Shown: positions 33,371 to 56,576 of the stretch, piece after piece
How positions within the stretch are numbered: position 1 is the first letter of the stretch
Layout of the letters: every line of letters starts with the position of its first letter
Source of the DNA: Actinomycetota bacterium
GTDB lineage: Bacteria; Actinomycetota; Humimicrobiia; Humimicrobiales; Humimicrobiaceae
Length of the DNA: 64,000 nucleotides
Direction of reading: 5' to 3'
NCBI GenBank assembly: GCA_028698215.1
Contig: JAQVDY010000004.1
Location: 481-64,480 of the forward strand
Notes under the pieces: generated by a model
The model's database searches: none
Told to the model about the DNA's origin: nothing
The model's input: only the letters and a program-made list of their open reading frames with translations
Translations under genes and position numbers: made by a program

Positions 33371-34157
33371 CCTGATAGTTTTAATTATAGTATTAATATC
33401 GGCAGTGGGTTGCGGATTATTTTATTATAAGCCCGGAATTGAAGATACAAGCGAAAGGGCCAATACAGGATTTATAGTAGCGGAAGTGATTGATGGAGAT
33501 ACTTTGGTTATAGAAGGCGGAGAGAGAATCAGGCTAATTGGCATAAATACCCCGGAAGAAGGCCAGTATTTTTATAGGGAAGCCAAACAAGCCCTGGAAG
33601 CTATGGTAGAAGGGAAAAATATAAAGCTGGAATCAGATATTTCTGACCTGGACCAATACGGCCGGCTGTTGAGATATGTATATAAGGACAATTTGTTTGT
33701 AAATCTGGAAATGGTAAAACGGGGTTTTGCCCATTCTTATAGTTATCCGCCGGATCTAAAACATCAGGATCAATTGCTTCAGGCCCAGGAATACGCCAGG
33801 CAAAACAGTTTGGGTTTGTGGGAACAAAGCAGCTCCCCCCTGGAGGTTAAAATCCAATATGATGCCCCTGGTGATGACAGCCAGAATATCAATCAGGAAT
33901 ATGTAATAATTACTAATACTTCTTCTTTTTCTATGGATGTAACAGGGTTTACTATCAAAGACCGGGGAACCAACATTTTTAAGTTCCCCAGGTTTGAACT
34001 ACAAAGCGGCCAAACCATTTTTGTACATAGTGGTTACGGCAAAAATGAAGACGGCCACTTTTACTGGAATAGCGATACCCCTGTATGGAATAACAGTGGC
34101 GACACCTTGTTTATAAGGGATAGGGAAGGACTTCTGGTGGCCATTTTTGATTATTAA
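33342..34157 (+). CDS. Secreted or lipid-anchored thermonuclease (SNase) fused to a lamin-tail domain
   Basis: Hydrophobic N-terminus ending AVGC; VIDGDT, RLIGINTPE, DQYGRLLRYV; LTD-like EYVIITN...VWNNSGDT. Confidence 0.85.
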   Translation: MISLKSEIISLIVLIIVLISAVGCGLFYYKPGIEDTSERANTGFIVAEVIDGDTLVIEGGERIRLIGINTPEEGQYFYREAKQALEAMVEGKNIKLESDISDLDQYGRLLRYVYKDNLFVNLEMVKRGFAHSYSYPPDLKHQDQLLQAQEYARQNSLGLWEQSSSPLEVKIQYDAPGDDSQNINQEYVIITNTSSFSMDVTGFTIKDRGTNIFKFPRFELQSGQTIFVHSGYGKNEDGHFYWNSDTPVWNNSGDTLFIRDREGLLVAIFDY

Positions 34158-34687
34158 ACGTCTTTGTAGTGGGATTCATGTTTAATCCAGTACAGGGAAG
34201 GGTGTATTAATTTTTGCCACCTTATTTTTATTATACGGAAAAGTATCTTAAATAATTGGCTTAATGCATTCCCATGGTTGGCCAGGGCCAATTTCATGCC
34301 TTCTATCCGGTTGTCAGCATAATTTACAACGGCTGAGGTTTCTTTAAGCTGTTTATCTGTAGGAATTTGAAACTGGTAAAGGAGGTTCAGCCGGTTTAAG
34401 GCTTCAGCCCCCTCATATATTTCATTCCAAACGCATTTTTTACTGCTGTCTACCTCGCATTTACCCTCTTGAGATCCACCGCAGGGACCGTTTCTTAATT
34501 CCTTGGGACATCTCATAGGGCAGACAAAACCGGTAGTGGACAGGATACATTGACCACAAGACCTGCAGTCAAAGATTAGTTCCTTTAGTTTTTCTTCTAA
34601 AAAAAACAGAACCCTATAGATGCATCTGAGATGCAGGAACGGCTTTGGTTTAGGTTTAAATTGCTTTGTGCTGGTAAACGAAACCAT
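34154..34687 (-). CDS. MetV-like / methylene-THF reductase C-terminal-domain Cys-rich protein
   Basis: DCRSCGQCILS.TGFVCPMRCPKELRNGPCGG...CEV....CVW. Confidence 0.8.
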   Translation of the reverse strand: MVSFTSTKQFKPKPKPFLHLRCIYRVLFFLEEKLKELIFDCRSCGQCILSTTGFVCPMRCPKELRNGPCGGSQEGKCEVDSSKKCVWNEIYEGAEALNRLNLLYQFQIPTDKQLKETSAVVNYADNRIEGMKLALANHGNALSQLFKILFRIIKIRWQKLIHPSLYWIKHESHYKDV

Positions 34688-34774
34688 ATATTTACTCCTT
34701 AAAGCGTAAAGTTTAGCTAAATAATTTAATAAATGTTATTCTAATTTATTTTTGATGTCAAACTACTAAGCTGA

Positions 34775-34802
34775 TTGACATTTTGACTAAAAGGTATAAA
34801 CT
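34775..34802 (+). promoter_or_regulatory. Putative sigma70 promoter of feoA
   Basis: TTGACA-16 nt-TAAACT. Confidence 0.45.
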
Positions 34803-34810
34803 AATAAAAA

Positions 34811-34830
34811 AAGTTAAGCATGCCTAAATT
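34811..34830. promoter_or_regulatory. Palindromic operator, DtxR/MntR-family-like
   Basis: AAGTTAAGCATGCCTAAATT; 16 of 20 positions match its reverse complement; abuts the feoA ATG. Confidence 0.5.
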
Positions 34831-35064
34831 ATGGAAAATACTAAATTGATGTCTTTGGCATCTGCAAAACCAAATATTGAATTGACTATAGCGGAAATTG
34901 CAGGTGGATATGGAATGAGGAGGAAACTGGCTGATATGGGCTTGGTTCCCGGCACTAAGATCAAAGTGTTAAGCCGTAATATGCTTGGTCCTATTATACT
35001 AGCTGTTAGAAATTACCGGTTAGCCATAGGCAGGGGTGTAGCTTCTAAAATAATGGTTAGCTAA
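34831..35064 (+). CDS. feoA: FeoA family protein
   Basis: RRKLADMGLVPGTKIKV, GPIILAV, LAIGRGVASKI. Confidence 0.92.
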   Translation: MENTKLMSLASAKPNIELTIAEIAGGYGMRRKLADMGLVPGTKIKVLSRNMLGPIILAVRNYRLAIGRGVASKIMVS

Positions 35065-36401
35065 ACTCCCATTTCTTCTTCAATAAAATGGGTATGTATT
35101 TTGCCTTCATTAAAATTCTTATTTTCCAGAATTCTTTTATGGAAAGGTATAGTAGTTTTTATACCTTTTATTTTGAATTCATTTAAAGCTCTTTTGGACC
35201 TTGCTATTGCCTCTTGCCTGTCATTTCCCCATACTATAAGCTTAGCCAGCAAAGAGTCATAAAAGGGTGATATGTTAGAGTTAGCATGTACAAAGGTATC
35301 TACCCTTATGCCGGGCCCTCCTGGTAGGTGGTAGTCAGTTATATGGCCTGGACTGGGAGAAAAGTTCTTATCCGGGTCTTCTGCATTTATCCTGAATTCA
35401 ATGCAGTGTCCGCGGCCGGAATAATCATGCCCGGTATTCAGTTTTTGGCCTGAGGCTAAAAATATCTGCTGCTTGATTAAATCCAGGCCGGTAACCATTT
35501 CGGTTACGGGATGCTCTACTTGGATACGGGTGTTGATCTCAATAAAATAAAAGTTATGCTTATGATCCATTAAAAATTCTATGGTTCCCAAATTCTGGTA
35601 ACCAATACTCCGGGCAGCATGGGCAGCCATTTCATACATAATTTTACGGTCTCTGGGGGACAGAGCCATGGAAGGAGCTTCTTCTATTAGCTTCTGATGC
35701 CTTCTCTGTATGGAACATTCCCTTTCTCCCACACAGGAAATATGGCCGTATTTATCAGCTATAATCTGAAATTCAATATGCCGGGGTTTGGATATATATT
35801 TTTCTATATAAACCTCTTCCGTGCCAAAAGATGATCTGGATTCAGATATGGCTAATGGAAAATAATTCATTAAATCCTTTTTGTCATTGCATATCCTCAT
35901 ACCTTTGCCGCCGCCGCCGAAACTGGCTTTAATTATGAGGGGGTATCCTATTTTCCGTGCTAGTTTTAATGCCTCCCTTGTATCTATGACATTGCCTGTT
36001 GAACCAGGTATTACTGGTATTTTATTTTGATGCATAACTTCTATGGCCTTGGATTTATTGCCGGCCAGCATTATGGATTCTTTGGGCGGTCCAATAAAAG
36101 TTAGGCTGTTTTGCTGACAGGCATCTACCAAGGTAGGATTCTCGGAAAGAAACCCATAACCAGGATGTAGGGCATCGCAGCTGCTTATTTCAGCAGCTGC
36201 GATTATATTGCTAATATTAAGATAGCTTTTTTGAGGTGGTGGTGGTCCGATACAGATGCTTCTGTCTGCAATCCTGGCATGCAGGGAATCCTGGTCTGCA
36301 GTAGAATAAACGGCAACAGTTTCCAGATCCATTTCCTGGCATGCCCTTATAATCCTGACTGCTATCTCGCCTCTATTGGCGATTAGAACTCTTTTGAACA
36401 A
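35061..36401 (-). CDS. accC: Biotin carboxylase
   Basis: ANRGEIAVR, HPGYGFLSEN, KASFGGGGKGMR, RECSIQRRHQK, EINTRIQVEHPVTE, YDSLLAKLI. Confidence 0.97.
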   Translation of the reverse strand: MFKRVLIANRGEIAVRIIRACQEMDLETVAVYSTADQDSLHARIADRSICIGPPPPQKSYLNISNIIAAAEISSCDALHPGYGFLSENPTLVDACQQNSLTFIGPPKESIMLAGNKSKAIEVMHQNKIPVIPGSTGNVIDTREALKLARKIGYPLIIKASFGGGGKGMRICNDKKDLMNYFPLAISESRSSFGTEEVYIEKYISKPRHIEFQIIADKYGHISCVGERECSIQRRHQKLIEEAPSMALSPRDRKIMYEMAAHAARSIGYQNLGTIEFLMDHKHNFYFIEINTRIQVEHPVTEMVTGLDLIKQQIFLASGQKLNTGHDYSGRGHCIEFRINAEDPDKNFSPSPGHITDYHLPGGPGIRVDTFVHANSNISPFYDSLLAKLIVWGNDRQEAIARSKRALNEFKIKGIKTTIPFHKRILENKNFNEGKIHTHFIEEEMGV

Positions 36402-36402
36402 T

Positions 36403-38175
36403 TCAAATTTCCTTTTTAATAAGCATTATAATCTGGCCAAATTCTACCGGCTGTTCGTTCTCTATCATTATCTTATCTATCACCCCATCAAGTTCAGCAG
36501 TAATTTTATTCATTAATTTCATGGCTTCAACAATACACAGGGTGTCACCCTTGCTGACCGCTTGGCCTTCTTTGACAAAGGGTTCTGCCTGTGGGGAAGG
36601 TGAACTGTAGAAGGTACCCACTATTGGAGATTTAACCTCTATCAAGTTCTCTTGGTAATCTGGCTTTCGAGGTTCAGGGGAAGAGGGGGGAGCGGCTGCA
36701 GACTGTTTGTTTATGGATATCTTTACTCCATCAACCTCAAAATTAATATTCCCGATATTGGAAGTTTCTACCAGGTCAGTTATTTCCCTTAACTTTTTTA
36801 AGCTGAGTTTATCCAGGTGTTGTTTTGCTTGCTCGGTCTGGGCTGGGGGTAACGGTTGTTTTTTATTTAAAAATGCTATGGTTTTTTCTGGAAAGAAACA
36901 GTAACTTAATATATGTTCCGGTTTATCAGTTATATTCTTTAGTTCCTCCCGGCATTGCTTATAAAGGTTTTCAGAAGGCAACTCCCAATATTTGTCATCC
37001 TTAATGCTGTTCAGGATGCTGGCTTCCAACTTGATATCGCGGGGAGGTTTTCCGTAATAACCAGCTAAATATTTCTTTATTTCATCGGAAGCAATTTCCC
37101 ATCTTTTTTCAGAAATTAAAGTGTTTAGGATGGCTTGGCTGGCAATTATTTGTCCCATAGGGGTAGCCAATGTAGGATTGCCCAGCTCTCCCTTGATAGT
37201 GATTATTTCCTTGATTACCCTATTTATATTTTCCATCTCTCCTATTTCCTTAAGCTGTCTTACTACCGAGCTTATCAGCCATTTGGGCAGCAGGCTCTGA
37301 TTTGATTCGAAAAGGGAGGAAGTGTCAAAGAAAAAGTCTTGGATTAAAAACGGGTATATGTTTTTCTTAACTATTTCAAATGCCTGTAGGGCCTTAGTCC
37401 AATTCAGGTTAAAAGATATACTGGAATCTTTTAAGCTTAATAAAAAAGCGAAAATGGTGGGGCTGTAATCTTGATATGAGGAGGGTAAAAAACTCAAGTC
37501 AACCCCACCACCTCCATTAGCACAAGCCTTATAATAGTTTAGGACCTGAAGGCCCCTAAGGTTATAGCTGCTTAACAATATTGGGATATCCGTAAGGGAG
37601 GTGATTTTTTCAAACAGCTTGGCAGTAGTGGAAGGCAATAGAGTAGATTCAACGTCTTTTATGCAAATGCTGCTGCATCCCATAGAGGTAAGCTGCATGA
37701 TCTTATCCTGGTAGTACCTATGATCCCGGGAATGTTCATAGATTAGGATACCCTGGAAAGAAGCCCCAGCTTCTATAACCTTTTCGGCCGTATATTCTAT
37801 ATCTTTAAAATCATTTAAGGCATCATAAATTTTAAAAACTTCTATCCCGCTTGCTATGGATTGGTCAATAAATTTATTAATTAAGTCTTGGGGATAAAGA
37901 TCAACCCCTACCAGGTTTTTGCCTCCAATTTGAGCTTGCAGTTTAAGTTCTGGAGCCATTTTTTTTATATAGGCACAAATCTGAAAAGGAGATTTATAGA
38001 AACAGTTTTCCAGCATTTTCTCGAAAGTGGACCCACCCAGGACCTCTACGGTATCAAACCCTATCTGGGAATAATTTTCTAGTACCTGGTCCAGTTTATG
38101 GATATCCACGGAACAGAGATCAGTATTTTGAAATATATCTCTTAAGGTAACATCGTTTAACCTTATTCTATTCAT
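36403..38175 (-). CDS. Degenerate OadA/PycB-like carboxyltransferase domain fused to a full AccB-type biotin carboxyl carrier
   Basis: N-terminal TIM barrel DVTLRD, GGSTF, YDALND, IKD, LATP; C-terminal AccB with SPIVGTFYSSPSP and EAMKLMN. Confidence 0.88.
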   Translation of the reverse strand: MNRIRLNDVTLRDIFQNTDLCSVDIHKLDQVLENYSQIGFDTVEVLGGSTFEKMLENCFYKSPFQICAYIKKMAPELKLQAQIGGKNLVGVDLYPQDLINKFIDQSIASGIEVFKIYDALNDFKDIEYTAEKVIEAGASFQGILIYEHSRDHRYYQDKIMQLTSMGCSSICIKDVESTLLPSTTAKLFEKITSLTDIPILLSSYNLRGLQVLNYYKACANGGGGVDLSFLPSSYQDYSPTIFAFLLSLKDSSISFNLNWTKALQAFEIVKKNIYPFLIQDFFFDTSSLFESNQSLLPKWLISSVVRQLKEIGEMENINRVIKEIITIKGELGNPTLATPMGQIIASQAILNTLISEKRWEIASDEIKKYLAGYYGKPPRDIKLEASILNSIKDDKYWELPSENLYKQCREELKNITDKPEHILSYCFFPEKTIAFLNKKQPLPPAQTEQAKQHLDKLSLKKLREITDLVETSNIGNINFEVDGVKISINKQSAAAPPSSPEPRKPDYQENLIEVKSPIVGTFYSSPSPQAEPFVKEGQAVSKGDTLCIVEAMKLMNKITAELDGVIDKIMIENEQPVEFGQIIMLIKKEI

Positions 38176-38740
38176 CTTGGTTTTTACCCTTTCCGGATAA
38201 AACTTTATAAATATTTGCTGCCAGCAATATTTTTATTATATCAGGTACTATAAAGGGTAACACAGCCAGCTTAAAAACATTGGCGGCTTCAGCACTGCTA
38301 AAGGCAATACTCCTGTTAACATAAAATAAAATATGAATGTATCCCAAACTGTATATGCACAATAGCCCTGCCATTAATGCCCACCATACCCTTTTAGGAC
38401 TGGATATATTTTTAAAAATATAGCTGGATACAAAGGAGGCTGCTAAAAAACCTAAAACATATCCTGCGGTAGGCCCTGCCAGTACCGTATAGGAATTATT
38501 AAATCCTGCAAAAACTCCCATTCCCATAAAACCTAAACCCACATACATCAGCTGGGAATAAAAAGCATAGGGCATACCCAGTATAAGGGAGCTTAGCAAT
38601 ACGGTAAAAACCTGCATGGTAAGTGGCACTGGAGTAAAAGGTAGATAAAAAAAACAATTTGCCCCTAATGCCGTCAGGAAGGCAAAAGTTATGGTAAAAA
38701 TTATTTTAACCTTTAAGCTTACTGTCTGTTCCATAAGCAA
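38168..38740 (-). CDS. bioY: Biotin transporter BioY
   Basis: LPFTPVPLTMQVF, MGVFAG, GPTAGYVLGF, PFIVPDIIK. Confidence 0.95.
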   Translation of the reverse strand: MLMEQTVSLKVKIIFTITFAFLTALGANCFFYLPFTPVPLTMQVFTVLLSSLILGMPYAFYSQLMYVGLGFMGMGVFAGFNNSYTVLAGPTAGYVLGFLAASFVSSYIFKNISSPKRVWWALMAGLLCIYSLGYIHILFYVNRSIAFSSAEAANVFKLAVLPFIVPDIIKILLAANIYKVLSGKGKNQDE

Positions 38741-38878
38741 TATCCTTTCAGAGGTTCTGTTTTGGCAAAAGACGGAACTAGCAATTTAAAGTTTCAATAA
38801 AGCAACTCATTTTGAAACCAATCCCCTGGATGCCCGTCTTTTTAACCAACTATAAATAGTATTAATCCGGGGGAACTT

Positions 38879-40027
38879 ATGGATTATTCTTTTACTGAGG
38901 AACAGCAGATGGTCGTAGATATATGCCGGCAAATTACTGAGCAGAAAATAAAGCCGGTAAGGGCAGAGCTGGATGAGAAACAGGTTTTTCCTTCAGAACT
39001 GTTAGCGGAAATAGGCAAAGCGGATTTATTCAGGTTATTCATACCTGAGCAGTATGACGGGATGGGGACCGGCATATTTGAAGTATGCCTGGCCACCGAA
39101 GAGCTAAGCAGGGGAGATTTAAGTGTTGCTACCTCCTATGCCGCCAGCGGGTTGGGATTTTTACCCATCCTTATATCAGGCAGCGAAGAACAAAAGAAAA
39201 AATATTTGCCTGCACTGGCTTCGGGCCAAAAACTGGCAGCTTTCGGGCTTACCGAGCCTGAAGCAGGAAGTGATGCCAGTGGTATTAAAACCAAGGCAAA
39301 ATTGGAGGGCAACTGCTATATACTAGACGGAACCAAGCAATGGATTACCAATGGGGGAGAAGCTGACATCTATACCATATTTGCCATGACTAATCCGTCT
39401 AAGGGAAGCAGGGGAGCCTCTGCTTTTATAGTAGAAAAAGGCATGGAAGGTTTTGAGTTTGGAAAAAAAGAAAATAAGATGGGAATAAGGGCTTCTGCTA
39501 CCAGGGAATTAATCTTTAACCAATGCAAAATTCCCAGGGAGAACCTGATAGGTAAAGAAGGTATGGGCTTTCTAATAGCCATGAAAACCCTGGATAGGTC
39601 ACGTCCTGCAGTAGGGGCGCAGGGGGTTGGACTGGCCCAGGGTGCCCTGGAAGAAGCCTTGGCTTATGCCAAGGTAAGGAAACAGTTTTCGGTACCTATT
39701 TCTACCTTCCAGGCCATCCGCCATATGCTGGCTGATATGGCAACCCAGGTAGAGGCTGCCCGGAGCCTGGTTTATATGGCAGCCCGGAGGGTGGACCAGC
39801 AGGAGAAAGATATATCCAGGGTATCCGCCATGGCCAAACTTTTTGCTTCAGATATGGCTATGAAAGTAACTACAGACGCAGTTCAGGTATTGGGAGGTTA
39901 TGGCTATATGAAAGAGTATCCGGTGGAAAAGATGATGCGAGATGCCAAGATACTGCAGATATATGAGGGAACCAATCAAATACAGAGGGATGTAATTGCC
40001 CTGGACTTAATTAAAAAGGGATTTTAA
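38879..40027 (+). CDS. Acyl-CoA dehydrogenase (Bcd/CarC-like)
   Basis: FGLTEPEAGSDA, KQWITNG, ENKMGIRAS, RKQF, QVLGGYGY, IYEGTNQIQR (catalytic Glu). Confidence 0.95.
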   Translation: MDYSFTEEQQMVVDICRQITEQKIKPVRAELDEKQVFPSELLAEIGKADLFRLFIPEQYDGMGTGIFEVCLATEELSRGDLSVATSYAASGLGFLPILISGSEEQKKKYLPALASGQKLAAFGLTEPEAGSDASGIKTKAKLEGNCYILDGTKQWITNGGEADIYTIFAMTNPSKGSRGASAFIVEKGMEGFEFGKKENKMGIRASATRELIFNQCKIPRENLIGKEGMGFLIAMKTLDRSRPAVGAQGVGLAQGALEEALAYAKVRKQFSVPISTFQAIRHMLADMATQVEAARSLVYMAARRVDQQEKDISRVSAMAKLFASDMAMKVTTDAVQVLGGYGYMKEYPVEKMMRDAKILQIYEGTNQIQRDVIALDLIKKGF

Positions 40028-40034
40028 CCAAGGG

Positions 40035-40847
40035 GTGGTAAATATTAAGGTTTTAGTTTGCATTAAGCAGGTGCCTGGCACCACAGATATAAAAATTGAT
40101 TCTCAAACCAATACCCTGATCAGGGAGGGCATTGAAAACATTATTAATCCTTATGATGAGTATGCCCTGGAGGAAGGGGTTAGCTTAAATGAAAGAATGG
40201 AAGCCATAAGCCAAACCATAGCATTGACCATGGGACCTTTACAGGCAATGCAGATATTAAAAGATGCCCTGTCGGTAGGGGCAGATGGGGCGGTACTGGT
40301 TTCAGACCGGGATTTTGCCGGTGCGGATACCTGGGCTACTGCCCAGACCCTGGCTGCAGCTTCTAGTAAAATTGGACAGGTGGGTCTTACCATATTCGGC
40401 AAGCAAACACTGGATGGGGATACCGGCCAGGTAGGCCCGGAATATGCCCAAATATTAAACATACCTTTTGTAGGTTATGTTAGCCGGATTATCAGGATAG
40501 ATAAAAATAGTTTACAGGTGAAAAGGCTGGCCGAAGACCGTTATGAAACCATAGAAGTAAGTATGCCTGCAGCTATTTCGGTTTTAAAGGAAATAAACGA
40601 GCCAAGGGTGCCTTCTCTGAGGGGAAAGCTGAAAGCAGCCAAAGCCCAGATACCGGTATGGTGCCGGAATGATTTGGGCCTTAATGCCGATCAGGTGGGG
40701 CTGCAGGGTTCATTTACCCAGGTAGTTAAAGTATTCATACCTACCATAAAACATGAAGTTATGATGCTGGAAGGTTCTGTGGAGGAGCAGGTAGAAAAAC
40801 TTTTTAAAAAGCTAAAGCAACTAAACAGGGTTCAGGAGGATATTTAA
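40035..40847 (+). CDS. etfB: Electron transfer flavoprotein beta subunit
   Basis: CIKQVP, NPYDEYALE, FAGADT, GKQTLDGDTGQVGP, NEPR. Confidence 0.96.
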   Translation: MVNIKVLVCIKQVPGTTDIKIDSQTNTLIREGIENIINPYDEYALEEGVSLNERMEAISQTIALTMGPLQAMQILKDALSVGADGAVLVSDRDFAGADTWATAQTLAAASSKIGQVGLTIFGKQTLDGDTGQVGPEYAQILNIPFVGYVSRIIRIDKNSLQVKRLAEDRYETIEVSMPAAISVLKEINEPRVPSLRGKLKAAKAQIPVWCRNDLGLNADQVGLQGSFTQVVKVFIPTIKHEVMMLEGSVEEQVEKLFKKLKQLNRVQEDI

Positions 40848-42037
40848 TGGGGATAAAAGTTTTAGAAGATAAATGTACCGGCTGCGGCTTATGCCTTAAA
40901 TCATGCCTTTACCAGGCCATAGATATAAAGAATAAAGTAGCGGTAATTAATGATAGCTGCATATTATGTGGAGCTTGTGTCCCGGCCTGTAAATTTCAAG
41001 CAATCCAGCTAACTACAAAAGAATCCATCAAAGACTTCCCCGATTATAGGGGGTTTATGGTATTTTTAGAAACCAAGGATGGGCGGATCAAGGATTCAGG
41101 CCTGGAACTATTAAGTAAAACCCGCCAATTGAATAAAATTTTAAATACAAATATTTGTGGAGTATGCATGGGAGCCAGCCAGGATCAACTCCATTTGCCT
41201 TTCAAATTTGGGGCAGATAAAGTTTTTGCTTTTAATAGTGACGGATGGGAGCAAGGCATGGATGATACCTACAGCCAGGCTCTTTTCCAAATCATAGGAG
41301 AGGTAAAACCGGAAATATTTTTGGCAGCAGCCACCTCGTTTGGAAGGACATTGACCCCTAAACTGGCTGCTATGCTTAAGACTGGATTGACTGCTGATTG
41401 TACCGAGCTGGAAGTTGATAAGGATACTAGGCTTTTAAAACAGACCAGGCCCACTTTTGGGGGCAATGTTTTGGCCACTATTGTCTGCAAGAACTCCCGG
41501 CCCCAGATGGCTACGGTACGGCCTCATGTTTTTAAAAAGGTTGAACTTGGGGCAAAGCCGGAACAGATAGAGATGGTGCCCTTAAAAAAGGCAGGATTGG
41601 TAAACCGGCAAAAACTGCTAGACGTTGACCATAACCTGGACCAGGATATAAACTTGGCTGACTATGAAGTAATTGTTGCCGGGGGCAGGGGGATGGGCGG
41701 CAGTCAAAATTTTTCCTTGTTAAGAGAACTGGCAGACTTATTGAAAGGCACGGTAGCCGCTTCCAGGGCAGCAGTAGACGCTGGCTGGATTGCTTATCCC
41801 CATCAAGTAGGCCAAACCGGAAAAACAGTTAACCCCAAACTATATATTGCCTGTGGAATATCCGGAGCTATCCAGCACCTGGCAGGAATGCAGACTTCAG
41901 ATATAATTATAGCCATAAACAAAGATAGTTCGGCTCCTATATTTAAAGTTGCAAATTATGGAATTGTGGGGGATATTTTGGAAATAGTACCAAAGTTGAT
42001 TTCAAGGATAAAACAAGGTCTATCCTTAGTAGATTAG
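40847..42037 (+). CDS. etfA: Electron transfer flavoprotein alpha subunit with N-terminal 2[4Fe-4S] ferredoxin domain
   Basis: CTGCGLCLKSC and CILCGACVPAC; TADCT, TRPTFGG, QVGQTGK, GISGAIQHLAG. Confidence 0.96.
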   Translation: MGIKVLEDKCTGCGLCLKSCLYQAIDIKNKVAVINDSCILCGACVPACKFQAIQLTTKESIKDFPDYRGFMVFLETKDGRIKDSGLELLSKTRQLNKILNTNICGVCMGASQDQLHLPFKFGADKVFAFNSDGWEQGMDDTYSQALFQIIGEVKPEIFLAAATSFGRTLTPKLAAMLKTGLTADCTELEVDKDTRLLKQTRPTFGGNVLATIVCKNSRPQMATVRPHVFKKVELGAKPEQIEMVPLKKAGLVNRQKLLDVDHNLDQDINLADYEVIVAGGRGMGGSQNFSLLRELADLLKGTVAASRAAVDAGWIAYPHQVGQTGKTVNPKLYIACGISGAIQHLAGMQTSDIIIAINKDSSAPIFKVANYGIVGDILEIVPKLISRIKQGLSLVD

Positions 42038-42673
42038 TATTTTTTCAATTTGCTTAAACCAGAAGGCAAAATCATTATTTGTAATGAACTGGCTATACAT
42101 AGGTTCCATTTGGGTTAAAATTGAGGCTAAAACAGTTTCCAGATGTACGCTATGGCCTAATTGAACGCTAATGGAGGTAGATGTATCCTCATAAGGTTTC
42201 AGGTGTTTAGAGGCCAAATTTACATTTAATCCCATTCCCAAATTCACATATAAATTATCCTTTATATTTTCGGGCTCTACCAGTATACCCCCCAGTTTCC
42301 TGTTACAGCAATAAAGGTCATTAGGCCATTTAATAATTATTTTTAAGCCATATCTAATTTGCAATGCCCGGGCGGCGGCATAAGCAAAAAGAAGGGTAAT
42401 CTGGGGCATGTTTCTGGGCTTAAGGTTTGGTTTTAATATAAGGGTAAAATAAAGGCCACCTGGCGGAGAAACCCATTCTGCCCCCAGCTTTCCCCTGCCC
42501 CTGGTTTGCTGGCCGGCAGCTATGACCATGCCTTCAGTTATATGTTCAGCTTTTTTTTCTAAAAGGGAAGCATAGTTATTGGTAGAATCGATGCTGGTAA
42601 AATATTTGATATCCTTTCCCAGCCAGGAGGTGTTTAATTTTTGATTATATAATGTTACATTAAAATCGTTCAT
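42026..42673 (-). CDS. birA: Biotin-protein ligase, catalytic domain only (no HTH, no evident C-terminal domain)
   Basis: IDSTN, QTRGRGK.G..W.SP, KWPNDL, KLGGIL, GLNVN; ATG at 42673 preferred over the ORF-track start at 42736. Confidence 0.85.
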   Translation of the reverse strand: MNDFNVTLYNQKLNTSWLGKDIKYFTSIDSTNNYASLLEKKAEHITEGMVIAAGQQTRGRGKLGAEWVSPPGGLYFTLILKPNLKPRNMPQITLLFAYAAARALQIRYGLKIIIKWPNDLYCCNRKLGGILVEPENIKDNLYVNLGMGLNVNLASKHLKPYEDTSTSISVQLGHSVHLETVLASILTQMEPMYSQFITNNDFAFWFKQIEKILIY

Positions 42674-42797
42674 TAAAAATATATATTTTTTTAAAATAAG
42701 GCAAACATAGTATACTTGATTATAGCTATTTGCCAAATTTTATAAAGAAAAGACAAATGATACAGATTATGGAGCATAAACATCTTAGGAGAGTGTA

Positions 42798-44035: not shown

Positions 44036-44467
44036 GTGTCAATAATGCTAAATCAAGAACAAATTAAAGATATTATTCCTCACCGGGAGCCTTTCCTGCT
44101 GGTGGACCAAGTAGTAAAGTTAGAACCAGGAAAGCGTATTAAGGCCTTAAAGAAAATAAGGGGAGATGAATATTTTTTCAAGGGCCATTTTCCTTCCAAC
44201 CCCATTATGCCGGGAGTGTTGATTGTGGAGGCTATGGCCCAGGCCGGGGCAATAGCCCTGCTAACCCTAGAAGAGCACAAGGGCAAGTTAGCCCTTTTTG
44301 CCGGCATAGAGAAGGTGAGGTTTAAACAGTTGGTAAAGCCTGGGGATATACTAACCATGGAAGTTGAATTATTGAATTTAAGAAGAACAATTGGCCGGGC
44401 TAAAGCTGAAGCCAGGGTAGCAGGCAAGCTGGCCTGCAGCGGAGAAATAATGTTTGCTATAGTTTGA
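44036..44467 (+). CDS. fabZ: 3-hydroxyacyl-ACP dehydratase
   Basis: [37 protein letters not shown]. Confidence 0.97.
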
Positions 44468-44480
44468 TTGAAAGGAAATA

Positions 44481-45443
44481 ATGAAAAAAACAGCATTAAT
44501 GTTTCCTGGACAAGGATCCCAGTATCAGGGAATGGGGATAAAATTTTTAGAGGATAATCCAAAATATATGGCCTACATAAAGCAATGCAATCAGGCCATG
44601 GGCATAGATATTTTAGAGATAATTGCTGAGCAGCCCCATACTTTAAGCCAAACAGAATACAGCCAGCCTGCCATATACAGTTTAAGTTGCGCCTATTATG
44701 ATTACCTTAAAGAGAACACCAGTTTAGCCATACAAGCAGATGCGGTAATTGGCCATAGCCTGGGTGATTACAGCGCTTTATATGCCAGCGGGGGATGTAG
44801 TTTTTATGAAGGCCTAAACCTGGTTATTTACCGGTCAAAAATTATGGCTGAACAAAACCATCTAAATCCCGGCATGATGGCAGCAGTCCTTGGCCAGGAA
44901 TATACTATGGTAGAAGAGCTCATAAAAGAATTAAAGATTAATATATATATAGCCAATTATAATAGTCATAATCAAATTGTATTAAGCGGCCTCAAACAGG
45001 ACATGGTTAAGGCTATAGAACAGCTTAAACATAACGGGGTTAGAAAAATTTTACCCTTGAAAGTTGGGGCATCCTCTCATTGCCCCTTAATGGAACCGGT
45101 AGCCCGGAAATTAAAGTCCTATTTGAATAACAATTTAACTATTGGTGATTTAAATATTCCCTTTTTCTCTTCAAGTGGTAAAAAATGGATAGTTGCGGAA
45201 GAGGTCAAAGAAATTTTGGAAAAACAGCTAATAACCCCTATAAATTGGCTGGATTCAGTAATTAAATTGCTAAATGAAGGTTTTAACGCTTTTGTTGAAA
45301 TTGGGCCCAAGAACGTACTGGCAAGCCTGGTGCTTAGAATTAGCCAAAGTGAAAGAAATAGTATAGAGGTATTTGATTTTGAAGATAACCTGGATACTTT
45401 ATTAAATGATTTTAAAAACAAGGAAGGGACAGATGAAGCTTAA
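44481..45443 (+). CDS. fabD: Malonyl-CoA:ACP transacylase
   Basis: FPGQGSQ, GHSLGDY, ANYN, SHCPLM, EIGP. Confidence 0.95.
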   Translation: MKKTALMFPGQGSQYQGMGIKFLEDNPKYMAYIKQCNQAMGIDILEIIAEQPHTLSQTEYSQPAIYSLSCAYYDYLKENTSLAIQADAVIGHSLGDYSALYASGGCSFYEGLNLVIYRSKIMAEQNHLNPGMMAAVLGQEYTMVEELIKELKINIYIANYNSHNQIVLSGLKQDMVKAIEQLKHNGVRKILPLKVGASSHCPLMEPVARKLKSYLNNNLTIGDLNIPFFSSSGKKWIVAEEVKEILEKQLITPINWLDSVIKLLNEGFNAFVEIGPKNVLASLVLRISQSERNSIEVFDFEDNLDTLLNDFKNKEGTDEA

Positions 45444-46179
45444 AGATAAAGTTTGTCTAATAACCGGAGGAGCCCGAGGCATCGGCAGGAGCATAGCGGA
45501 GTCTTTCTTGGAGGAAGGCGCCCAGGTAATTATATTTGATTTGGACCAAAAGCAGGGCCAGATAACCCAAAAAGAACTTAACCAAAAATTTGGATCAAAG
45601 CGTGTCCATTATTTCCATGTAGATATTTCCAATGAAGAAGATGTGGAGCTTAACCTGGAAAAGATTACCGGCATTTTCCACAATATTGATATATTGGTTA
45701 ATAATGCGGGAATTACCAGGGATAACCTGATGATGAGAATGCCGTTGAAGGATTGGAAACAGGTATTAGACATTAACTTAACCGGAGCTTTCCTGCTGTG
45801 CAAAAATGTAGTTAGGAATATGATTAAGAACCGCAAGGGGAAGATAATAAATATATCTTCCATAGTGGGCTTACACGGCAATCTGGGTCAGGCTAACTAT
45901 GCTGCAGCTAAAGCGGGGCTCATTGGCTTGACCAAGTCTTTAGCTAAAGAGCTGGCTGCTAAAAATATTCAGGTAAATGCAGTGGCACCGGGCTATATAG
46001 ATACTGCCATGACTGAAAACCTTAAAGATGAGGTTAAACAAAAAATTTTAGATTTAGTACCTGCAAAAAGATTAGGCTCAGTAGAAGATGTGGCCAAGGC
46101 TATAGTTTTTTTAGCCAGCAGCGATTCTGATTATATTACAGGAACAGTACTGAATGTTGATGGTGGAATGGGGATATAG
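45433..46179 (+). CDS. fabG: 3-oxoacyl-ACP reductase
   Basis: TGGARGIG, NNAGITRD, YAAAK, VAPGYIDT; ATG at 45433 follows AGGAAGGG. Confidence 0.95.
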   Translation: MKLKDKVCLITGGARGIGRSIAESFLEEGAQVIIFDLDQKQGQITQKELNQKFGSKRVHYFHVDISNEEDVELNLEKITGIFHNIDILVNNAGITRDNLMMRMPLKDWKQVLDINLTGAFLLCKNVVRNMIKNRKGKIINISSIVGLHGNLGQANYAAAKAGLIGLTKSLAKELAAKNIQVNAVAPGYIDTAMTENLKDEVKQKILDLVPAKRLGSVEDVAKAIVFLASSDSDYITGTVLNVDGGMGI

Positions 46180-46190
46180 AAAGGAAATAT

Positions 46191-47447
46191 ATGGAAAATA
46201 ACTGTAAACAAAAAAGAGTAGTGGTTACAGGTTTGGGAGTTATTACTGCTTTGGGGTTAGATGTCGAAACTTACTGGAATAGTCTTATAGAGGGAAAATC
46301 AGGAGTAAGCACTATTGAGGGTTTTGATTTGGATAAGATATCCTCAAAGATAGCTGCCCAGATTAAAAATTTCAATCCTGATGACTATATGGAGTTAAAA
46401 TTATCTAAAAGAATGGACCGTTTTGCTCAGTTTGCCTATGCTGCTGCAGCCCAGGCTATCAAAGACAGCACCATGGTTATAAATCAGGAAAACGGCCACC
46501 AGGTAGGAGTGTATATTGGCAGCGGGGTAGGGGGGCTGGGCACCCTGGAATTGCAGCATACCAGGATGATACAGAAGGGTGCAAACAGGGTAAGCCCATT
46601 TCTCATCCCTATGATTATTAGCAATATGGCTGCAGCACAGGTATCTATCATGAGTGGAGCCAGGGGGCCGGTAAGCACTACTACTACTGCCTGTGCAGCA
46701 GGCTCAAATGCTATTGGAGATGCATTTGAAATTATAAGGAGGGGAGCAGCAGAAGTAATGATTGCCGGAGGCAGCGAAGCACCTATAACTCCTCTGGGTA
46801 TGAGCGGTTTTTCTAACATGAATGCTTTATCTACCAGGAATTCTGAACCACAGAAAGCTTCCAGGCCTTTTGACCGGGATAGGGATGGATTTGTAATGGG
46901 GGAAGGCTGCGGAATATTGATTTTGGAGGATATGGAATATGCCCTGGGCAGGGGAGCTAAAATATATGCTGAAATGTTTGGTTACGGCCTTTCCGGCGAA
47001 GCATACCACATGACAGCTTTAGAACAATCTGGACAAAACGTGGCCAGGTGTATGGGTAACTGTTTGGAACAAGGCAATATCGAACCAAGTGAAGTCGACT
47101 ATATAAATGCCCATGGAACCTCTACCCCTTTAAATGACATAGTGGAAAGCACAGCTATTGAAAGACTGTTCGGCACTTATACCGATAACATAAATATAAG
47201 CTCTACCAAATCCATGACCGGTCACTGCCTGGGAGCCGCAGGAGCCATAGAAGCAGTAGCTTCAGTACTGGCTCTGGTAAATGAAGTTATTCCTCCTACC
47301 ATAAACCTGGATAATCCTGACAGCCAATGCCGCTTAAATTACACCCCCCATGTCAGGGTGGAAAGGAAAGTAAGGGTTGCTTTATCTAATTCAATGGGTT
47401 TTGGGGGCCACAATGTATGTCTGGGGTTTAAAAAATGGGAACAATAA
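46191..47447 (+). CDS. fabF: 3-oxoacyl-ACP synthase II
   Basis: TACAAG (Cys), NAHGTST and GHCLGAAG (His pair), SNSMGFGG. Confidence 0.97.
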   Translation: MENNCKQKRVVVTGLGVITALGLDVETYWNSLIEGKSGVSTIEGFDLDKISSKIAAQIKNFNPDDYMELKLSKRMDRFAQFAYAAAAQAIKDSTMVINQENGHQVGVYIGSGVGGLGTLELQHTRMIQKGANRVSPFLIPMIISNMAAAQVSIMSGARGPVSTTTTACAAGSNAIGDAFEIIRRGAAEVMIAGGSEAPITPLGMSGFSNMNALSTRNSEPQKASRPFDRDRDGFVMGEGCGILILEDMEYALGRGAKIYAEMFGYGLSGEAYHMTALEQSGQNVARCMGNCLEQGNIEPSEVDYINAHGTSTPLNDIVESTAIERLFGTYTDNINISSTKSMTGHCLGAAGAIEAVASVLALVNEVIPPTINLDNPDSQCRLNYTPHVRVERKVRVALSNSMGFGGHNVCLGFKKWEQ

Positions 47448-48205
47448 CCTGCCGCCAATGTAATAGCCGGATGGATCAAAAAGAGTTTGTAAATAACTTT
47501 AAAGTATGTCTTAAATGTGGGCACCACAGTCCCTTGACGGCTTTAGAAAGAATAGACCTTACTGTTGATGAGGATAGTTTCAGGGAGCTGGCTTCTAATA
47601 TTAATTCTTTGGATTTTTTAAAATTCCAGGATATTAAGCCTTATTCTGATAGGCTGGTAGAAGCCCGGTCTAAAAGTGGAATGGATGAAGCCATTATGGT
47701 GGGAACAGCCCGGCTGGACAACCGGCCCATAGCTTTAGGGGTCATGGATTTTGCCTATATGGGGGGTAGTATGGGCAGTGTAGTTGGGGAAAAGATTAAG
47801 CTGTTAAGTGATCATGCTATCAAAGATAGGCTTCCTTTAATCATAATTACCGCTTCCGGAGGAGCCCGGATGCAGGAAGGGATCATGTCCTTGATGCAGA
47901 TGGCAAAAACAGTTTCCTGCATCCGAAGGCTGGGCGAGGAAAGGCTGCCTTTCTTTTCAGTAATTACCCACCCTACTACCGGGGGGGTAAGTGCCAGTTT
48001 TGCTTCTATTGCAGATATTATTATAGCTGAGCCCGGTGCCTTATTCTGTTTTGCAGGTCCGCGTGTGGTTCAGCAAACTATAAAAAAAGACCTTCCCCCT
48101 GATTTCGGGACAGCTGAAAGGGATTTGTCACATGGTTTGATTGATATTATTGTAGAAAGAAGCCGGTTAAGACCTGCCCTTATAAAAATATTAAATTTTT
48201 TCTAA
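47435..48205 (+). CDS. accD: Acetyl-CoA carboxylase carboxyltransferase beta
   Basis: Zn finger CRQC/CLKC, MGGSMGSVVGE, SGGARMQEG, PTTGGVSASFA. Confidence 0.96.
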   Translation: MGTITCRQCNSRMDQKEFVNNFKVCLKCGHHSPLTALERIDLTVDEDSFRELASNINSLDFLKFQDIKPYSDRLVEARSKSGMDEAIMVGTARLDNRPIALGVMDFAYMGGSMGSVVGEKIKLLSDHAIKDRLPLIIITASGGARMQEGIMSLMQMAKTVSCIRRLGEERLPFFSVITHPTTGGVSASFASIADIIIAEPGALFCFAGPRVVQQTIKKDLPPDFGTAERDLSHGLIDIIVERSRLRPALIKILNFF

Positions 48206-48214
48206 AAGGCCCAT

Positions 48215-49201
48215 ATGGAATTAAAGGATTTAAAAAACATACCAGGACACTATTTAAAAGATACGCTAAAAGCTTTTTTGAGACTGGAAAAACTAAAAGA
48301 ATTTTCTTTGTTTAGAAGTTCCCATTTTACGCAGGCTGAAAAAGAATTATTGGATAAGGTACAAAACTACAGGAAAGTGGAAAAAGGGGCTTTAAAAGTT
48401 TGGAATATTGTTCAACTGTCCAGGGATGAAAGAAGGCCTCAGACCCTGGATTACATTAAAGGAATATTTGATGATTTTGTAGAGCTTAAAGGAGATCGTC
48501 TAGGCCAGGATGACCAATCAATAATTACAGGTTTGGCCCGGCTTGGCACCCTTACTGTAGCCGTGGTAGGCCATAATAAGGGTAGGGATATCAAAGAAAG
48601 AGTAAAATATAATTTTGGTATGAGCAGTCCATCTGGGTATAGGAAATCACAAAGGATAATGAATATGGCCCAAAAGTTTAATTTTCCAGTGATTACTTTT
48701 ATAGATACTCCGGGAGCTTATCCGGCCATAGAAGCCGAAGATCAAGGGCAGGCAACAGCGATCGCAAAAAGCATAGAGCTTATGTTTGAAATTACTGTAC
48801 CGGTCATAACTATACTGATTGGGGAAGGAGGCAGCGGAGGTGCCCTGGCTATGGCCATTGGCAATAGGGTTATGATGCTGCAGAATTCCACCTATTCAGT
48901 AATATCCCCGGAAGGGTGCGCTGCTATTCTGTGGAAGGATCCTGCAGGTTCCAAATTAGCGGCCAGGGCCTTAAAAATAACGGCTAAAGATCTTTACCGT
49001 TTAGGAATAATTGATAAGGTAATACCTGAGCCTTGGGGAGGGGCTCAAAACAATATGCCTAGAACGGTGAGAATTGTTAAAAAGTATTTGGGGCTTAGCC
49101 TGAGGGAATTATTGGATAAAAAAGGAAGTCAGTTAAAAAAGGAAAGAGCAGAAAAATTTGAATCTATGGGTTTTTTTTCAGAGCCGCCTAATTCCCAATA
49201 A
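48215..49201 (+). CDS. accA: Acetyl-CoA carboxylase carboxyltransferase alpha
   Basis: RPQTLDYI, IDTPGAYP, GEGGSGGALA, YSVISPEGCAAILWK. Confidence 0.96.
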   Translation: MELKDLKNIPGHYLKDTLKAFLRLEKLKEFSLFRSSHFTQAEKELLDKVQNYRKVEKGALKVWNIVQLSRDERRPQTLDYIKGIFDDFVELKGDRLGQDDQSIITGLARLGTLTVAVVGHNKGRDIKERVKYNFGMSSPSGYRKSQRIMNMAQKFNFPVITFIDTPGAYPAIEAEDQGQATAIAKSIELMFEITVPVITILIGEGGSGGALAMAIGNRVMMLQNSTYSVISPEGCAAILWKDPAGSKLAARALKITAKDLYRLGIIDKVIPEPWGGAQNNMPRTVRIVKKYLGLSLRELLDKKGSQLKKERAEKFESMGFFSEPPNSQ

Positions 49202-55777: not shown

Positions 55778-55996
55778 ATGAAAAGGATAATATTAGATAC
55801 CAGAAAAAATAAAGATGTAAGCAGGCAGGGCATAGGCTGCGCCATCATGGTCATGGTGTTTTTAATTATTGCCTTGGTGGTGGCTATAGTTCAGCAAAGG
55901 GGCCTGGGCCTAATTATTACATTGGCAGTGATGGTTTTCGGTATAATTATCTTATATGCTTATATTTTTTTCAGGGTCACTAAAAAAAATAAATAG
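55778..55996 (+). CDS. Small two-TM hypothetical membrane protein
   Basis: 72 aa, two hydrophobic helices, basic termini; collinear with the next two genes. Confidence 0.55.
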   Translation: MKRIILDTRKNKDVSRQGIGCAIMVMVFLIIALVVAIVQQRGLGLIITLAVMVFGIIILYAYIFFRVTKKNK

Positions 55997-56026
55997 GTTG
56001 TACAAAAAATAGCAAGGAGCAAGGTA

Positions 56027-56383
56027 ATGACTTCTTTGGAGATAATAGGTCTGGTAGCAATTATTTTGATGTCAGCATTTTCTATAATAGCTATAATTTT
56101 AGCTGTTCCCATATTTAAGCTTTTATCTAAAGCAAACCGTATCATCGGAAGCGTTAGCGACCGGATAGACCCCATGGTTGGTGATCTCAATCTTATGGTA
56201 GGAAAGCTTAACGTGGAAATATCCTCTATAAATGATATTACCCGTAGCGCAGGCTCCATTGTGGAGCAGCTAGAAAAGATTATAAGGCTGGCCAGGATAG
56301 TGGTCACTAGCCCTATTATAAAAGTCATAAGTACCGGGGCCGGGCTAATAAGCGGTATTAAAAAAGCCAAGAACTCGGAGTAG
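56027..56383 (+). CDS. DUF948/YtxG-like single-TM coiled-coil protein
   Basis: N-terminal TM followed by a heptad-rich segment (KANRIIGSVSDRIDPMVGDLN...). Confidence 0.6.
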   Translation: MTSLEIIGLVAIILMSAFSIIAIILAVPIFKLLSKANRIIGSVSDRIDPMVGDLNLMVGKLNVEISSINDITRSAGSIVEQLEKIIRLARIVVTSPIIKVISTGAGLISGIKKAKNSE

Positions 56384-56396
56384 GGGATAGTGGTTT

Positions 56397-56576
56397 ATGA
56401 ATAAACGGGATGCAGGATTCATAATAGGCGGTGCTATAATTGGTGCAATTCTTGGTTTTATAATTCAAAAAAAAGGAATCACCAAGGTTATTGAACTGTT
56501 AAAAGGTAAAAAAACCATAAGTCCTAAAATTGTCGATTATTGGAAGCTATTAAGCCAAAAACTCGGCTGGGATTAA
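56397..56576 (+). CDS. 59-aa YtxH-like membrane protein (absent from the ORF track)
   Basis: Hand-translated MNKRDAGFIIGGAIIGAILGFIIQKKG...; Gly-rich TM; GGGGA SD-like site; follows the DUF948-like gene. Confidence 0.6.
   Translation: MNKRDAGFIIGGAIIGAILGFIIQKKGITKVIELLKGKKTISPKIVDYWKLLSQKLGWD

Follow-up and report, generated by a model that had tools for sequence, protein, structure and literature searches.

The 64,000-nucleotide stretch analysed here, referred to as the window and numbered from its first letter, carries on its minus strand (-) a gene for a 590-residue protein in which two modules are joined: a carboxyltransferase (CT) domain of the PycB/OadA/5S type (residues 1-445) and a complete AccB (residues 457-590), the biotin carboxyl carrier protein, or BCCP, of acetyl-CoA carboxylase (ACC). 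The CT domain lacks two metal-binding histidines and the substrate-binding arginine, and these changes are shared by a whole family of related proteins, in which the domain is nevertheless conserved. With moderate probability, the gene represents the organism's AccB, that is, the carrier of its ACC, descended from a PycB-AccB hybrid whose CT part has been disabled, while the resulting pseudo-CT would have been kept, most likely as a dimerising hub.

Domain layout and the altered active site

The C-terminal part shows five AccB hallmarks, namely the biotinylation motif, the thumb, the N-terminal segment with its linker, a score above the equivalog cut-off and the slot upstream of accC. Its last 134 residues align end to end with residues 1-156 of E. 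coli AccB (35% identity, E 4e-30), and against a profile of 155 positions that we built from 118 free-standing AccBs they match over positions 2-154 (E 2e-49), which bears out the view of a preliminary description of this DNA that they form a whole AccB. The thumb, an ACC-specific insertion at E. coli residues 94-101, is aligned without a gap (YSSPSPQAEPF versus YRTPSPDAKAF), and the EAMKLMN motif at residues 550-556 contains the biotin-accepting lysine, K553 (codon 36517-36519). The cut-off of the BCCP equivalog TIGR00531 (115.2) is exceeded by the whole fusion (126.7, in a local alignment that spans model positions 59-156 only) and by its C-terminal 140 residues alone (133.1).

The N-terminal part is recognised as a member of the PycB/OadA/5S group that scores below every threshold for it. 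In Pfam, the fusion is matched by PYC_OADA over residues 301-458 and by Biotin_lipoyl over residues 513-586, while HMGL-like (PF00682), a model matched by canonical PycB and OadA proteins, gives no match in it. The NCBIfam PycB model PRK09282 aligns with the fusion end to end at a score of 342.6, below its cut-off of 402; the oadA model gives 257 against 756 and the 5S model 162 against 827, and the pyruvate carboxylase (PC) models are also missed widely. All PycB, OadA and 5S cut-offs, including that of TIGR01108, lie above the score of the protein (264-343 bits versus 402 or more). The E-values exclude chance. In the AlphaFold2 model (mean pLDDT 80, about 90 in the barrel), the barrel, the funnel and the biotinyl domain are confidently predicted, and the AccB N-terminal segment takes an alpha/beta/beta form at low pLDDT (helix 459-471, strands 476-481 and 484-489). 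Foldseek searches with this model retrieved PycB 5ks8 (E 3e-40), PCs, the transcarboxylase subunit 5S 1rqb (TM 0.80) and OadA 2nx9 (TM 0.84), and the TIM barrel and helical funnel of PycB, OadA and 5S are thus present in the fusion.

The correspondence of the catalytic motifs was taken from HMMER residue-level alignments to the solved structures of PycB (5ks8_C), OadA (2nx9) and transcarboxylase 5S (1u5j). RD(G/A)HQ has become R12-D13-I-F15-Q16 with loss of the His, E(A/C)WGG has become E44-V-L46-G-G with loss of the Trp, LLRGQN has become Q-I83-G84-G85-K86-N87 with loss of the Arg, and both His of LHxHxxxG are lost in L-S202-S-Y204-N; the Lys of IAIKD is kept in C-I-K173-D and the Thr of LVTP in L-A-T338-P. 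The substitutions read from the single sequence in the preliminary description (RDIFQ, EVLGG, SSY and the missing Arg, with Lys and Thr retained) are all seen in these alignments. Lietzan and St. Maurice reportedly found in 2013 that R621 of R. etli PC binds pyruvate and that Y628 is its partner. G84 stands at the position of this Arg and T338, the catalytic Thr that is still present, at that of T882, while the equivalent of Y628 is relaxed across the window family. As the metal ligands of L. lactis PC are Asp534, carboxy-Lys703, His732 and His734 (PMC9581989), two of the four are gone here, D13 and K173 being kept and the HxH pair being replaced by S202 and Y204. With the loss of both His ligands, of the Arg that binds pyruvate and of the Tyr that partners it, the metal-dependent transfer of a carboxyl group to pyruvate has most likely been lost, and canonical binding of 2-oxoacids looks unlikely because the equivalents of Arg621 and Tyr628 (R. 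etli PC numbering) are lost or relaxed. Docking of biotin into the pocket in the canonical way is a possibility, on mixed evidence: T338, P339, Q342, Q347 and A348 are retained, while the counterpart of R621 is lost, that of Y628 relaxed and that of S885 a Gly.

Conservation in the Humimicrobiia and the related intact fusions

A database search returned 119 further full-length clusters with 41-66% identity to the window protein, from metagenome-assembled genomes (MAGs) named Ca. Humimicrobiaceae, Actinomycetota or Actinomycetia, and a genome scan added Ca. Hydromicrobium; like Ca. Humimicrobiaceae, this name belongs to the class Ca. Humimicrobiia. The 119 clusters span at least two families of this class, and their CT domains are full length and free of frameshifts. 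At position 202 (first His), these relatives have Ser in 98 cases, Cys in 8, Gly in 8 and other residues in 5, and at position 204 (second His), they have Ser in 54, Tyr in 47, Thr in 11 and others in 7; the HxH loss, for which the preliminary description had proposed an alignment of orthologs, extends to all of them, with His at neither position in any of the 119. The Arg at position 84 is replaced by Gly in 116 and the His at position 15 by Phe in 113. Lys173 is kept in 118, Thr338 in 115 and Asp13 in 104 (Glu in 12 and Asn in 3), and R12 and Q16 are each kept in more than 115. Given these family-wide counts, the inactivating changes are old and fixed in the window family and do not represent a defect of one genome.

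Within the family, mean pairwise identity is 57.5% in the barrel and 59% in the funnel, as compared with 69% in the AccB N-terminal segment, 67% in the biotinyl domain and 18% in the linker. When the adjoining AccC is used as a clock (dCT/dAccC), the divergence ratio is 1.57 in the window family (21 pairs) versus 0.98 in fusions with an intact site (105 pairs), and constraint on the CT domain is relaxed, yet far from gone. Taking as a reference the positions conserved to at least 85% in 32 intact CT domains, the window family retains 51, has switched 16 to new fixed residues and has relaxed 31. Switched and fixed positions include R84G, G85A, A176E, G177S, the change of QxPGGM to LLPKWL, and S341G, while the relaxed ones include W46, the position of the second His, and the Tyr that corresponds to R. 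etli Y628. Since the domain is conserved in all 119 relatives despite the loss of two ligands and of the substrate Arg, the window CT appears to be a pseudo-enzyme domain under purifying selection and not a decaying one. Both the pseudo-enzyme on an ACC carrier proposed in the preliminary description and its caveat of gene decay can be set against these data, the former agreeing with the family-wide losses in a conserved domain and the latter conflicting with a CT identity of 57-59% next to a linker at 18%.

The fusion is not confined to this class. In an exhaustive search with residues 1-450, the tight family (341-470 bits) is followed by a gap down to 222 bits, and just past the gap stand other proteins that pair a PycB-type CT with an AccB-type carrier. 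A scan of species-representative genomes then uncovered full-length fusions in many lineages, cultured species included; those with an intact fusion comprise Syntrophomonas, Thermincola ferriacetica, Desulfosporosinus fructosivorans 63.6F, Desulfitobacterium and Peptococcaceae, as well as Christensenellaceae, Eggerthellaceae, Adlercreutzia sp. ZJ141 and gut Coriobacteriia (loci L014-L026, L029 and L033; e.g., L018 5962-7893, L029 6001-7878 and L006 10001-11908). Their catalytic motifs are all intact (RD(H/Q)Q, WGG, LRGQ, IKD, HxH and T); with the PycB model they reach 741-884 bits, and their match to the BCCP model spans positions 1-155 of 156. Their gene order is spoIIIA-[fusion]-accC-asp23-nusB-folD-xseAB-ispA-dxs in a Syntrophomonadaceae MAG, spoIIIAE/AF/AH-[fusion]-accC-asp23-nusB in Desulfosporosinus, and efp-[fusion]-accC in Adlercreutzia and at locus L005; intact fusions therefore fill the classical accB slot in Clostridia and Coriobacteriia. 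This suggests that in these lineages one AccC and one carrier are shared between PC and ACC. The preliminary description knew of no account of such an ACC architecture, but the idea that it is unusual is not borne out: as the fusion is widespread and occupies the accB slot, what is particular to the window lineage is the loss of the catalytic site. Our literature search retrieved no description of a CT-AccB fusion, intact or inactive, or of a pseudo-CT domain.

Other proteins of the CT+AccB type outside the window family have lost different catalytic residues, with the carbamylated Lys replaced by Met, Asn or Thr, or with one His lost (P0244, P0256, P0259, P0274, P0277, P0280, P0282, P0300, P0338, P0357, P0365 and P0377). 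In P0244 (L008 950-2773) the Lys is replaced by Met, and in P0256 from Ca. Hydrogenedentota (L009 10001-11797) Lys has become Asn and HxH has become HxR, with no accC adjoining. Inactivation seems to have happened independently more than once. In a neighbour-joining tree of CT domains, the degenerate sequences lie at the base on long branches, and the tree provides no basis for choosing between a single and a multiple origin of either the fusion or the inactivation. An apparent excess of degenerate sites among AccB-type fusions in the search of representatives was rejected as a general rule, as the query was itself degenerate and the genome scan gave many intact fusions.

Proposed role of the fusion in acetyl-CoA carboxylase and competing explanations

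The genes around the fusion are those expected of an ACC carrier subunit. The bioY stop overlaps the ATG of the fusion by 8 nt (ATGAATAG; 38168-38175) and the TTG of accC begins 1 nt past the fusion stop (36401-36405), bioY, fusion and accC forming one tightly packed unit (operon); such close spacing suggests that transporter, carrier and carboxylase are translationally coupled. The accD and accA genes lie 9.3 kb away on the opposite strand, and the distances given in the preliminary description (1 nt to accC, about 9 kb to accDA) agree with these coordinates, with model scores above the cut-offs. accC directly follows the fusion in all 20 related genomes checked, none of these 20 loci has a free accB within 6 kb of the fusion, and no second biotinyl domain occurs within the 6-10 kb flanks of relatives. 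A six-frame search of the whole 64-kb window found no second biotinyl or CT domain, in keeping with the earlier statement that the window has no separate accB. A database search with the AccB part gave fusion fragments (P0121, P0122) and then free AccBs of other organisms at no more than 48% identity, among them P0123 in an efp-accB-accC context; the same search did not list the full-length fusions, and it is a weak negative only. A bioY gene upstream of the fusion is confined to the Humimicrobiia lineage, where synteny on contigs of up to 982 kb extends over the fab genes, birA, the acyl-CoA dehydrogenase/ETF genes, bioY, the fusion and accC.

The AccB-type sequence, the TIGR00531 score, the accC partner and the accB-slot synteny point to a role as ACC carrier, and the following sequence of events can be proposed. 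An ancestral hybrid, in which a 5S/PycB-type CT preceded a complete AccB and whose intact form survives in Clostridia and Coriobacteriia, would have allowed one AccC and one carrier to serve both pyruvate carboxylation, by the CT in cis, and acetyl-CoA carboxylation, by AccD/AccA in trans. In the class Ca. Humimicrobiia, the CT half would then have been disabled. BirA would biotinylate K553, AccC would carboxylate the carrier biotin, and the thumb-bearing biotinyl domain would swing on the Pro/Ala linker to deliver CO2 to AccD/AccA, which would make malonyl-CoA for the adjoining fab genes. The 445 residues of the pseudo-CT would have stayed after the loss of activity because they had become a non-catalytic part of the BC-BCCP assembly (BC, biotin carboxylase), most likely as a dimerising hub that would hold the carrier and, via the AccB N-terminal segment, AccC; the remodelled pocket may also bind a ligand.

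The window protein can be compared with several known systems. With the AccB/BCCP of multi-subunit ACC (E. coli AccB; 1bdo, 4hr7; TIGR00531), the window protein has in common the N-terminal segment, the Pro/Ala linker, the thumb and EAMKLMN, and also the context, its gene lying directly upstream of accC with accD/accA, birA and fab nearby; unlike E. coli AccB, it has a 450-residue N-terminal PycB-like domain, its AccB N-terminal segment is internal instead of forming a free N-terminus, and its gene is co-transcribed with bioY. Intact CT+AccB fusions (611-666 aa, about 28-32% full-length identity) share domain order, AccB-type carrier and downstream accC, but they keep the catalytic set of which HxH, R, W and H are lost here (741-884 versus 343 bits), and in their lineages bioY is not upstream of the fusion. 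In both sequence and structure, residues 1-440 are matched best by PycB of the two-subunit PC of Methylobacillus flagellatus (5ks8; PMC5059739), which has the same CT barrel, funnel and C-terminal biotinyl domain and a gene beside that of a biotin carboxylase, whereas the metal ligands and substrate Arg of 5ks8 are missing in the window protein. Between residue 442, where the alignment to 5ks8_C breaks off, and the biotinyl domain, where it is taken up again, lies the AccB N-terminal segment. In the two-subunit PC (alpha2beta4), a BT-like domain in beta and a C-terminal Ala-rich helix on the alpha subunit of ~471 aa join the subunits (PMC5059739); in contrast, the window fusion has no BT-like domain, the AccC of 446 aa has no such helix, and the carrier is of the AccB type. 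Because the partner is of the accC type and both the PycA helix and the BT-like domain are absent, binding to BC should go via the AccB N-terminal segment, as in ACC. OadA of Vibrio cholerae (2nx9) and 5S of Propionibacterium shermanii (1rqb) have the same fold (TM 0.80-0.84, rmsd about 3.5 A over about 455 residues), but the window protein lacks their Zn/Co ligand pair and has no adjoining oadB/oadG or 12S/1.3S partners; no oadB or oadG was found beside the fusion, the flanks being bioY and accC and the rest of the window having been analysed without a specific OadB scan. Catalytically silent modules, homologous or structural, that serve assembly or regulation exist elsewhere, such as the central domain of eukaryotic ACC, the BT and PT domains and the plant BADC pseudo-BCCPs, and mycobacterial AccA3 is one BC-BCCP unit shared among several CT subunits; these are functional analogies only, as none is a pyruvate-type CT fused to AccB. 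All in all, the window protein behaves as an AccB in sequence features, model score and gene position and fails as PycB, OadA or 5S on metal ligands, substrate Arg and model cut-offs.

Several points weigh against this explanation. In the barrel, conservation is highest at the C-terminal strand ends, where the active site used to be, and D13, K173 and T338 are retained in the CT domain; taken together, this resembles a functional pocket more closely than a simple scaffold, and the Arg looks moved two residues along the strand (R/K86) and not plainly lost. The N-terminus of E. coli AccB has been proposed to oligomerise or to pack in the lumen of ACC tubes (PMC11160672), and since a 50-kDa domain ahead of the AccB N-terminal segment would not obviously fit such tubes, the assembly would have to differ here. 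Moreover, the dimer or hub role is extrapolated from other CT domains, the carrier and scaffold roles are proposed here from sequences and models, and a second accB or an intact pycB was searched for only in the 64 kb and in the flanks of relatives.

The conserved strand ends could also mean that the pocket has been re-purposed as a new ligand-binding or catalytic site, coupling ACC to a metabolite or allowing a new carboxyl transfer in cis. Such a site might act on another substrate, or its chemistry might do without a metal and use K173, D13, T338 and the shifted R/K86. This would agree with the 16 canonically invariant positions that were switched to residues fixed in the family, with the retention of K173 (118/119), T338 (115/119) and R12/Q16 (more than 115), and with an R/K86 on the same strand face as the lost Arg, two residues away from it. 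Nevertheless, the residues found in place of the two His differ between family members (S/C/G and S/Y/T/P), 15 members have E or N instead of D13, the biotin pocket has a relaxed counterpart of Tyr628, the CT evolves 1.6x faster than intact CTs, and no DRE-TIM carboxyltransferase is known to work without the metal, all of which make a re-purposed pocket unlikely. A rebuilt, metal-free pocket made of K173, D13, T338, R/K86, E176/S177 and LLPKWL, which would bind a metabolite or the carrier's own (carboxy)biotin, is a rather more doubtful proposal; if it were true, a corollary would be that in intact relatives one AccC and one AccB-type carrier serve both PC and ACC.

Two further explanations were considered. 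The fusion might not be the ACC carrier at all if a separate accB existed elsewhere, in which case fusion and AccC would be an inactive former two-subunit PC, a regulator or a biotin store. The distance of 9 kb and the opposite strands of the fusion and accD/accA fit such a situation, as does the JGI label of oxaloacetate decarboxylase alpha on many members, and the search covered only the 64-kb window and the flanks of relatives. We consider it improbable, as the carrier is of the AccB type (thumb, N-terminal segment, TIGR00531) and not a short PycB/OadA biotinyl domain, the adjoining BC passes the accC equivalog and lacks the PycA helix, the beta-type BT-like domain is absent (PMC5059739), relatives occupy the classical accB slot, the AccB-part search gave only fusion fragments and then free AccBs of other organisms at up to 48% identity, and neither the window nor the 6-10 kb flanks of relatives contain a second biotinyl domain. 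That the CT domain is instead a neutral relic on its way to deletion, with no function of its own, is hardly credible: the loss of catalytic residues and a rate 1.6x that of intact homologues would be in line with it, but the reading is contradicted by the conservation data, since the domain is full length and without frameshift in 119 clusters of at least two families, has 57-59% identity versus 18% in the linker, keeps 51 canonical invariants with 16 new ones fixed, and has a confidently predicted fold. The preferred explanation thus stays that of an ACC carrier with a retained pseudo-CT.

Genomic surroundings and significance

The coordinates of the fusion, its parts and the associated genes are given in Table 1. 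A promoter and terminator scan of positions 34000-39100 was uninformative, with 14 promoter-like sites versus 15.7 expected.

Table 1. Features of the fusion and of the related genes in the window
Feature	Position	Strand	Evidence
Fusion gene, 590 aa: degenerate PycB/OadA-type CT domain and complete AccB	36403..38175	-	Intact open reading frame; Pfam; NCBIfam; 119 full-length relatives
CT TIM barrel, residues 1-290	37306..38175	-	Alignments to 5ks8_C, 2nx9, 1u5j; family columns; AlphaFold2; Foldseek
Helical funnel subdomain (Pfam PYC_OADA), residues 291-445, with conserved T338	36841..37305	-	PF02436 69.8 bits; conservation
AccB N-terminal alpha/beta/beta segment (KLREITDLVETSNI...), residues 457-492	36700..36807	-	Alignment to residues 1-34 of E. 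coli AccB and, from position 2 on, to the AccB profile; 69% family identity
Pro/Ala-rich flexible linker, residues 493-511	36643..36699	-	18% family identity; pLDDT below 50
Biotinyl domain with thumb (SPSPQAEP) and EAMKLMN, residues 512-590	36406..36642	-	PF00364 74 bits; TIGR00531; alignment
accC, biotin carboxylase, 446 aa, TTG start, without C-terminal PycA-type helix	35061..36401	-	TIGR00514 639.5 (cut-off 626.5)
bioY, biotin transporter S component	38168..38740	-	PF02632 108 bits
Biotin-protein ligase, matched in its ligase domain but in no repressor domain	42026..42736	-	TIGR00121 136 (cut-off 83); PF03099
fabZ-fabD-fabG-fabF, type II fatty-acid synthesis, directly upstream of accD/accA	44036..47447	+	Translations; Pfam of syntenic L001, L002 genes
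accD, ACC carboxyltransferase beta	47435..48205	+	TIGR00515 332.7 (cut-off 317.45)
accA, ACC carboxyltransferase alpha	48215..49201	+	PRK05724 398 (cut-off 357); TIGR00513 366 (cut-off 319)

The biotin-protein ligase matches models of bifunctional BirA only from position about 67, its DNA-binding repressor domain being probably absent, and its listed TTG start may lie too far upstream, with orthologues of 214-220 aa. Between bioY and birA, and divergent from bioY, positions 38879-42037 (+) encode an acyl-CoA dehydrogenase as well as EtfB and an EtfA whose N-terminal part has a ferredoxin-like Cys cluster, an arrangement kept in the syntenic relatives L001 and L002. On the strand of accC and 374 nt downstream of it, a small Cys-rich DUF5981 protein (methylene-tetrahydrofolate reductase C-terminal domain) is encoded at 34154-34687 (-), and such a gene also follows accC in L001.

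Farther away, 2934-3716 (-) and 6251-8583 (-) encode two subunits of HGD-D (2-hydroxyacyl-CoA dehydratase) type and an activator ATPase of BcrAD/BadFG type, with genes for trehalose-6-phosphate synthase and phosphatase between them (4067-6276); a TreT-type trehalose synthase lies at 56573-57820. An 868-aa protein encoded at 363-2969 (+) joins DHH/DHHA1 and two CBS domains to a head domain of the poly(A) polymerase/CCA-adding type. Two further proteins, of 342 aa (61573-62601, +) and 136 aa (55960-56370, -), have no Pfam match at E <= 1e-5.

Labels for the fusion in the databases are inconsistent, with "acetyl-CoA carboxylase biotin carboxyl carrier protein" from PGAP, "oxaloacetate decarboxylase alpha subunit" from JGI, "pyruvate carboxylase subunit B" for one relative, and also "hypothetical". 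The usual description of bacterial ACC has four separate proteins, among them an AccB of 17 kDa. In several anaerobic lineages, including cultured Desulfosporosinus, Thermincola and Adlercreutzia, the gene in the accB slot is instead that of a ~65-kDa protein which doubles as a PycB-type carboxyltransferase, and anaplerosis and lipid synthesis may have BC and BCCP in common. The extra CT domain persists in one entire class of Actinomycetota after the loss of its metal site, and the intact and degenerate fusions provide a natural active/inactive pair for asking what non-catalytic use a CT domain may have for the carrier. Metabolic reconstructions of the Humimicrobiia should enter this gene neither as a pyruvate carboxylase nor as an oxaloacetate decarboxylase.

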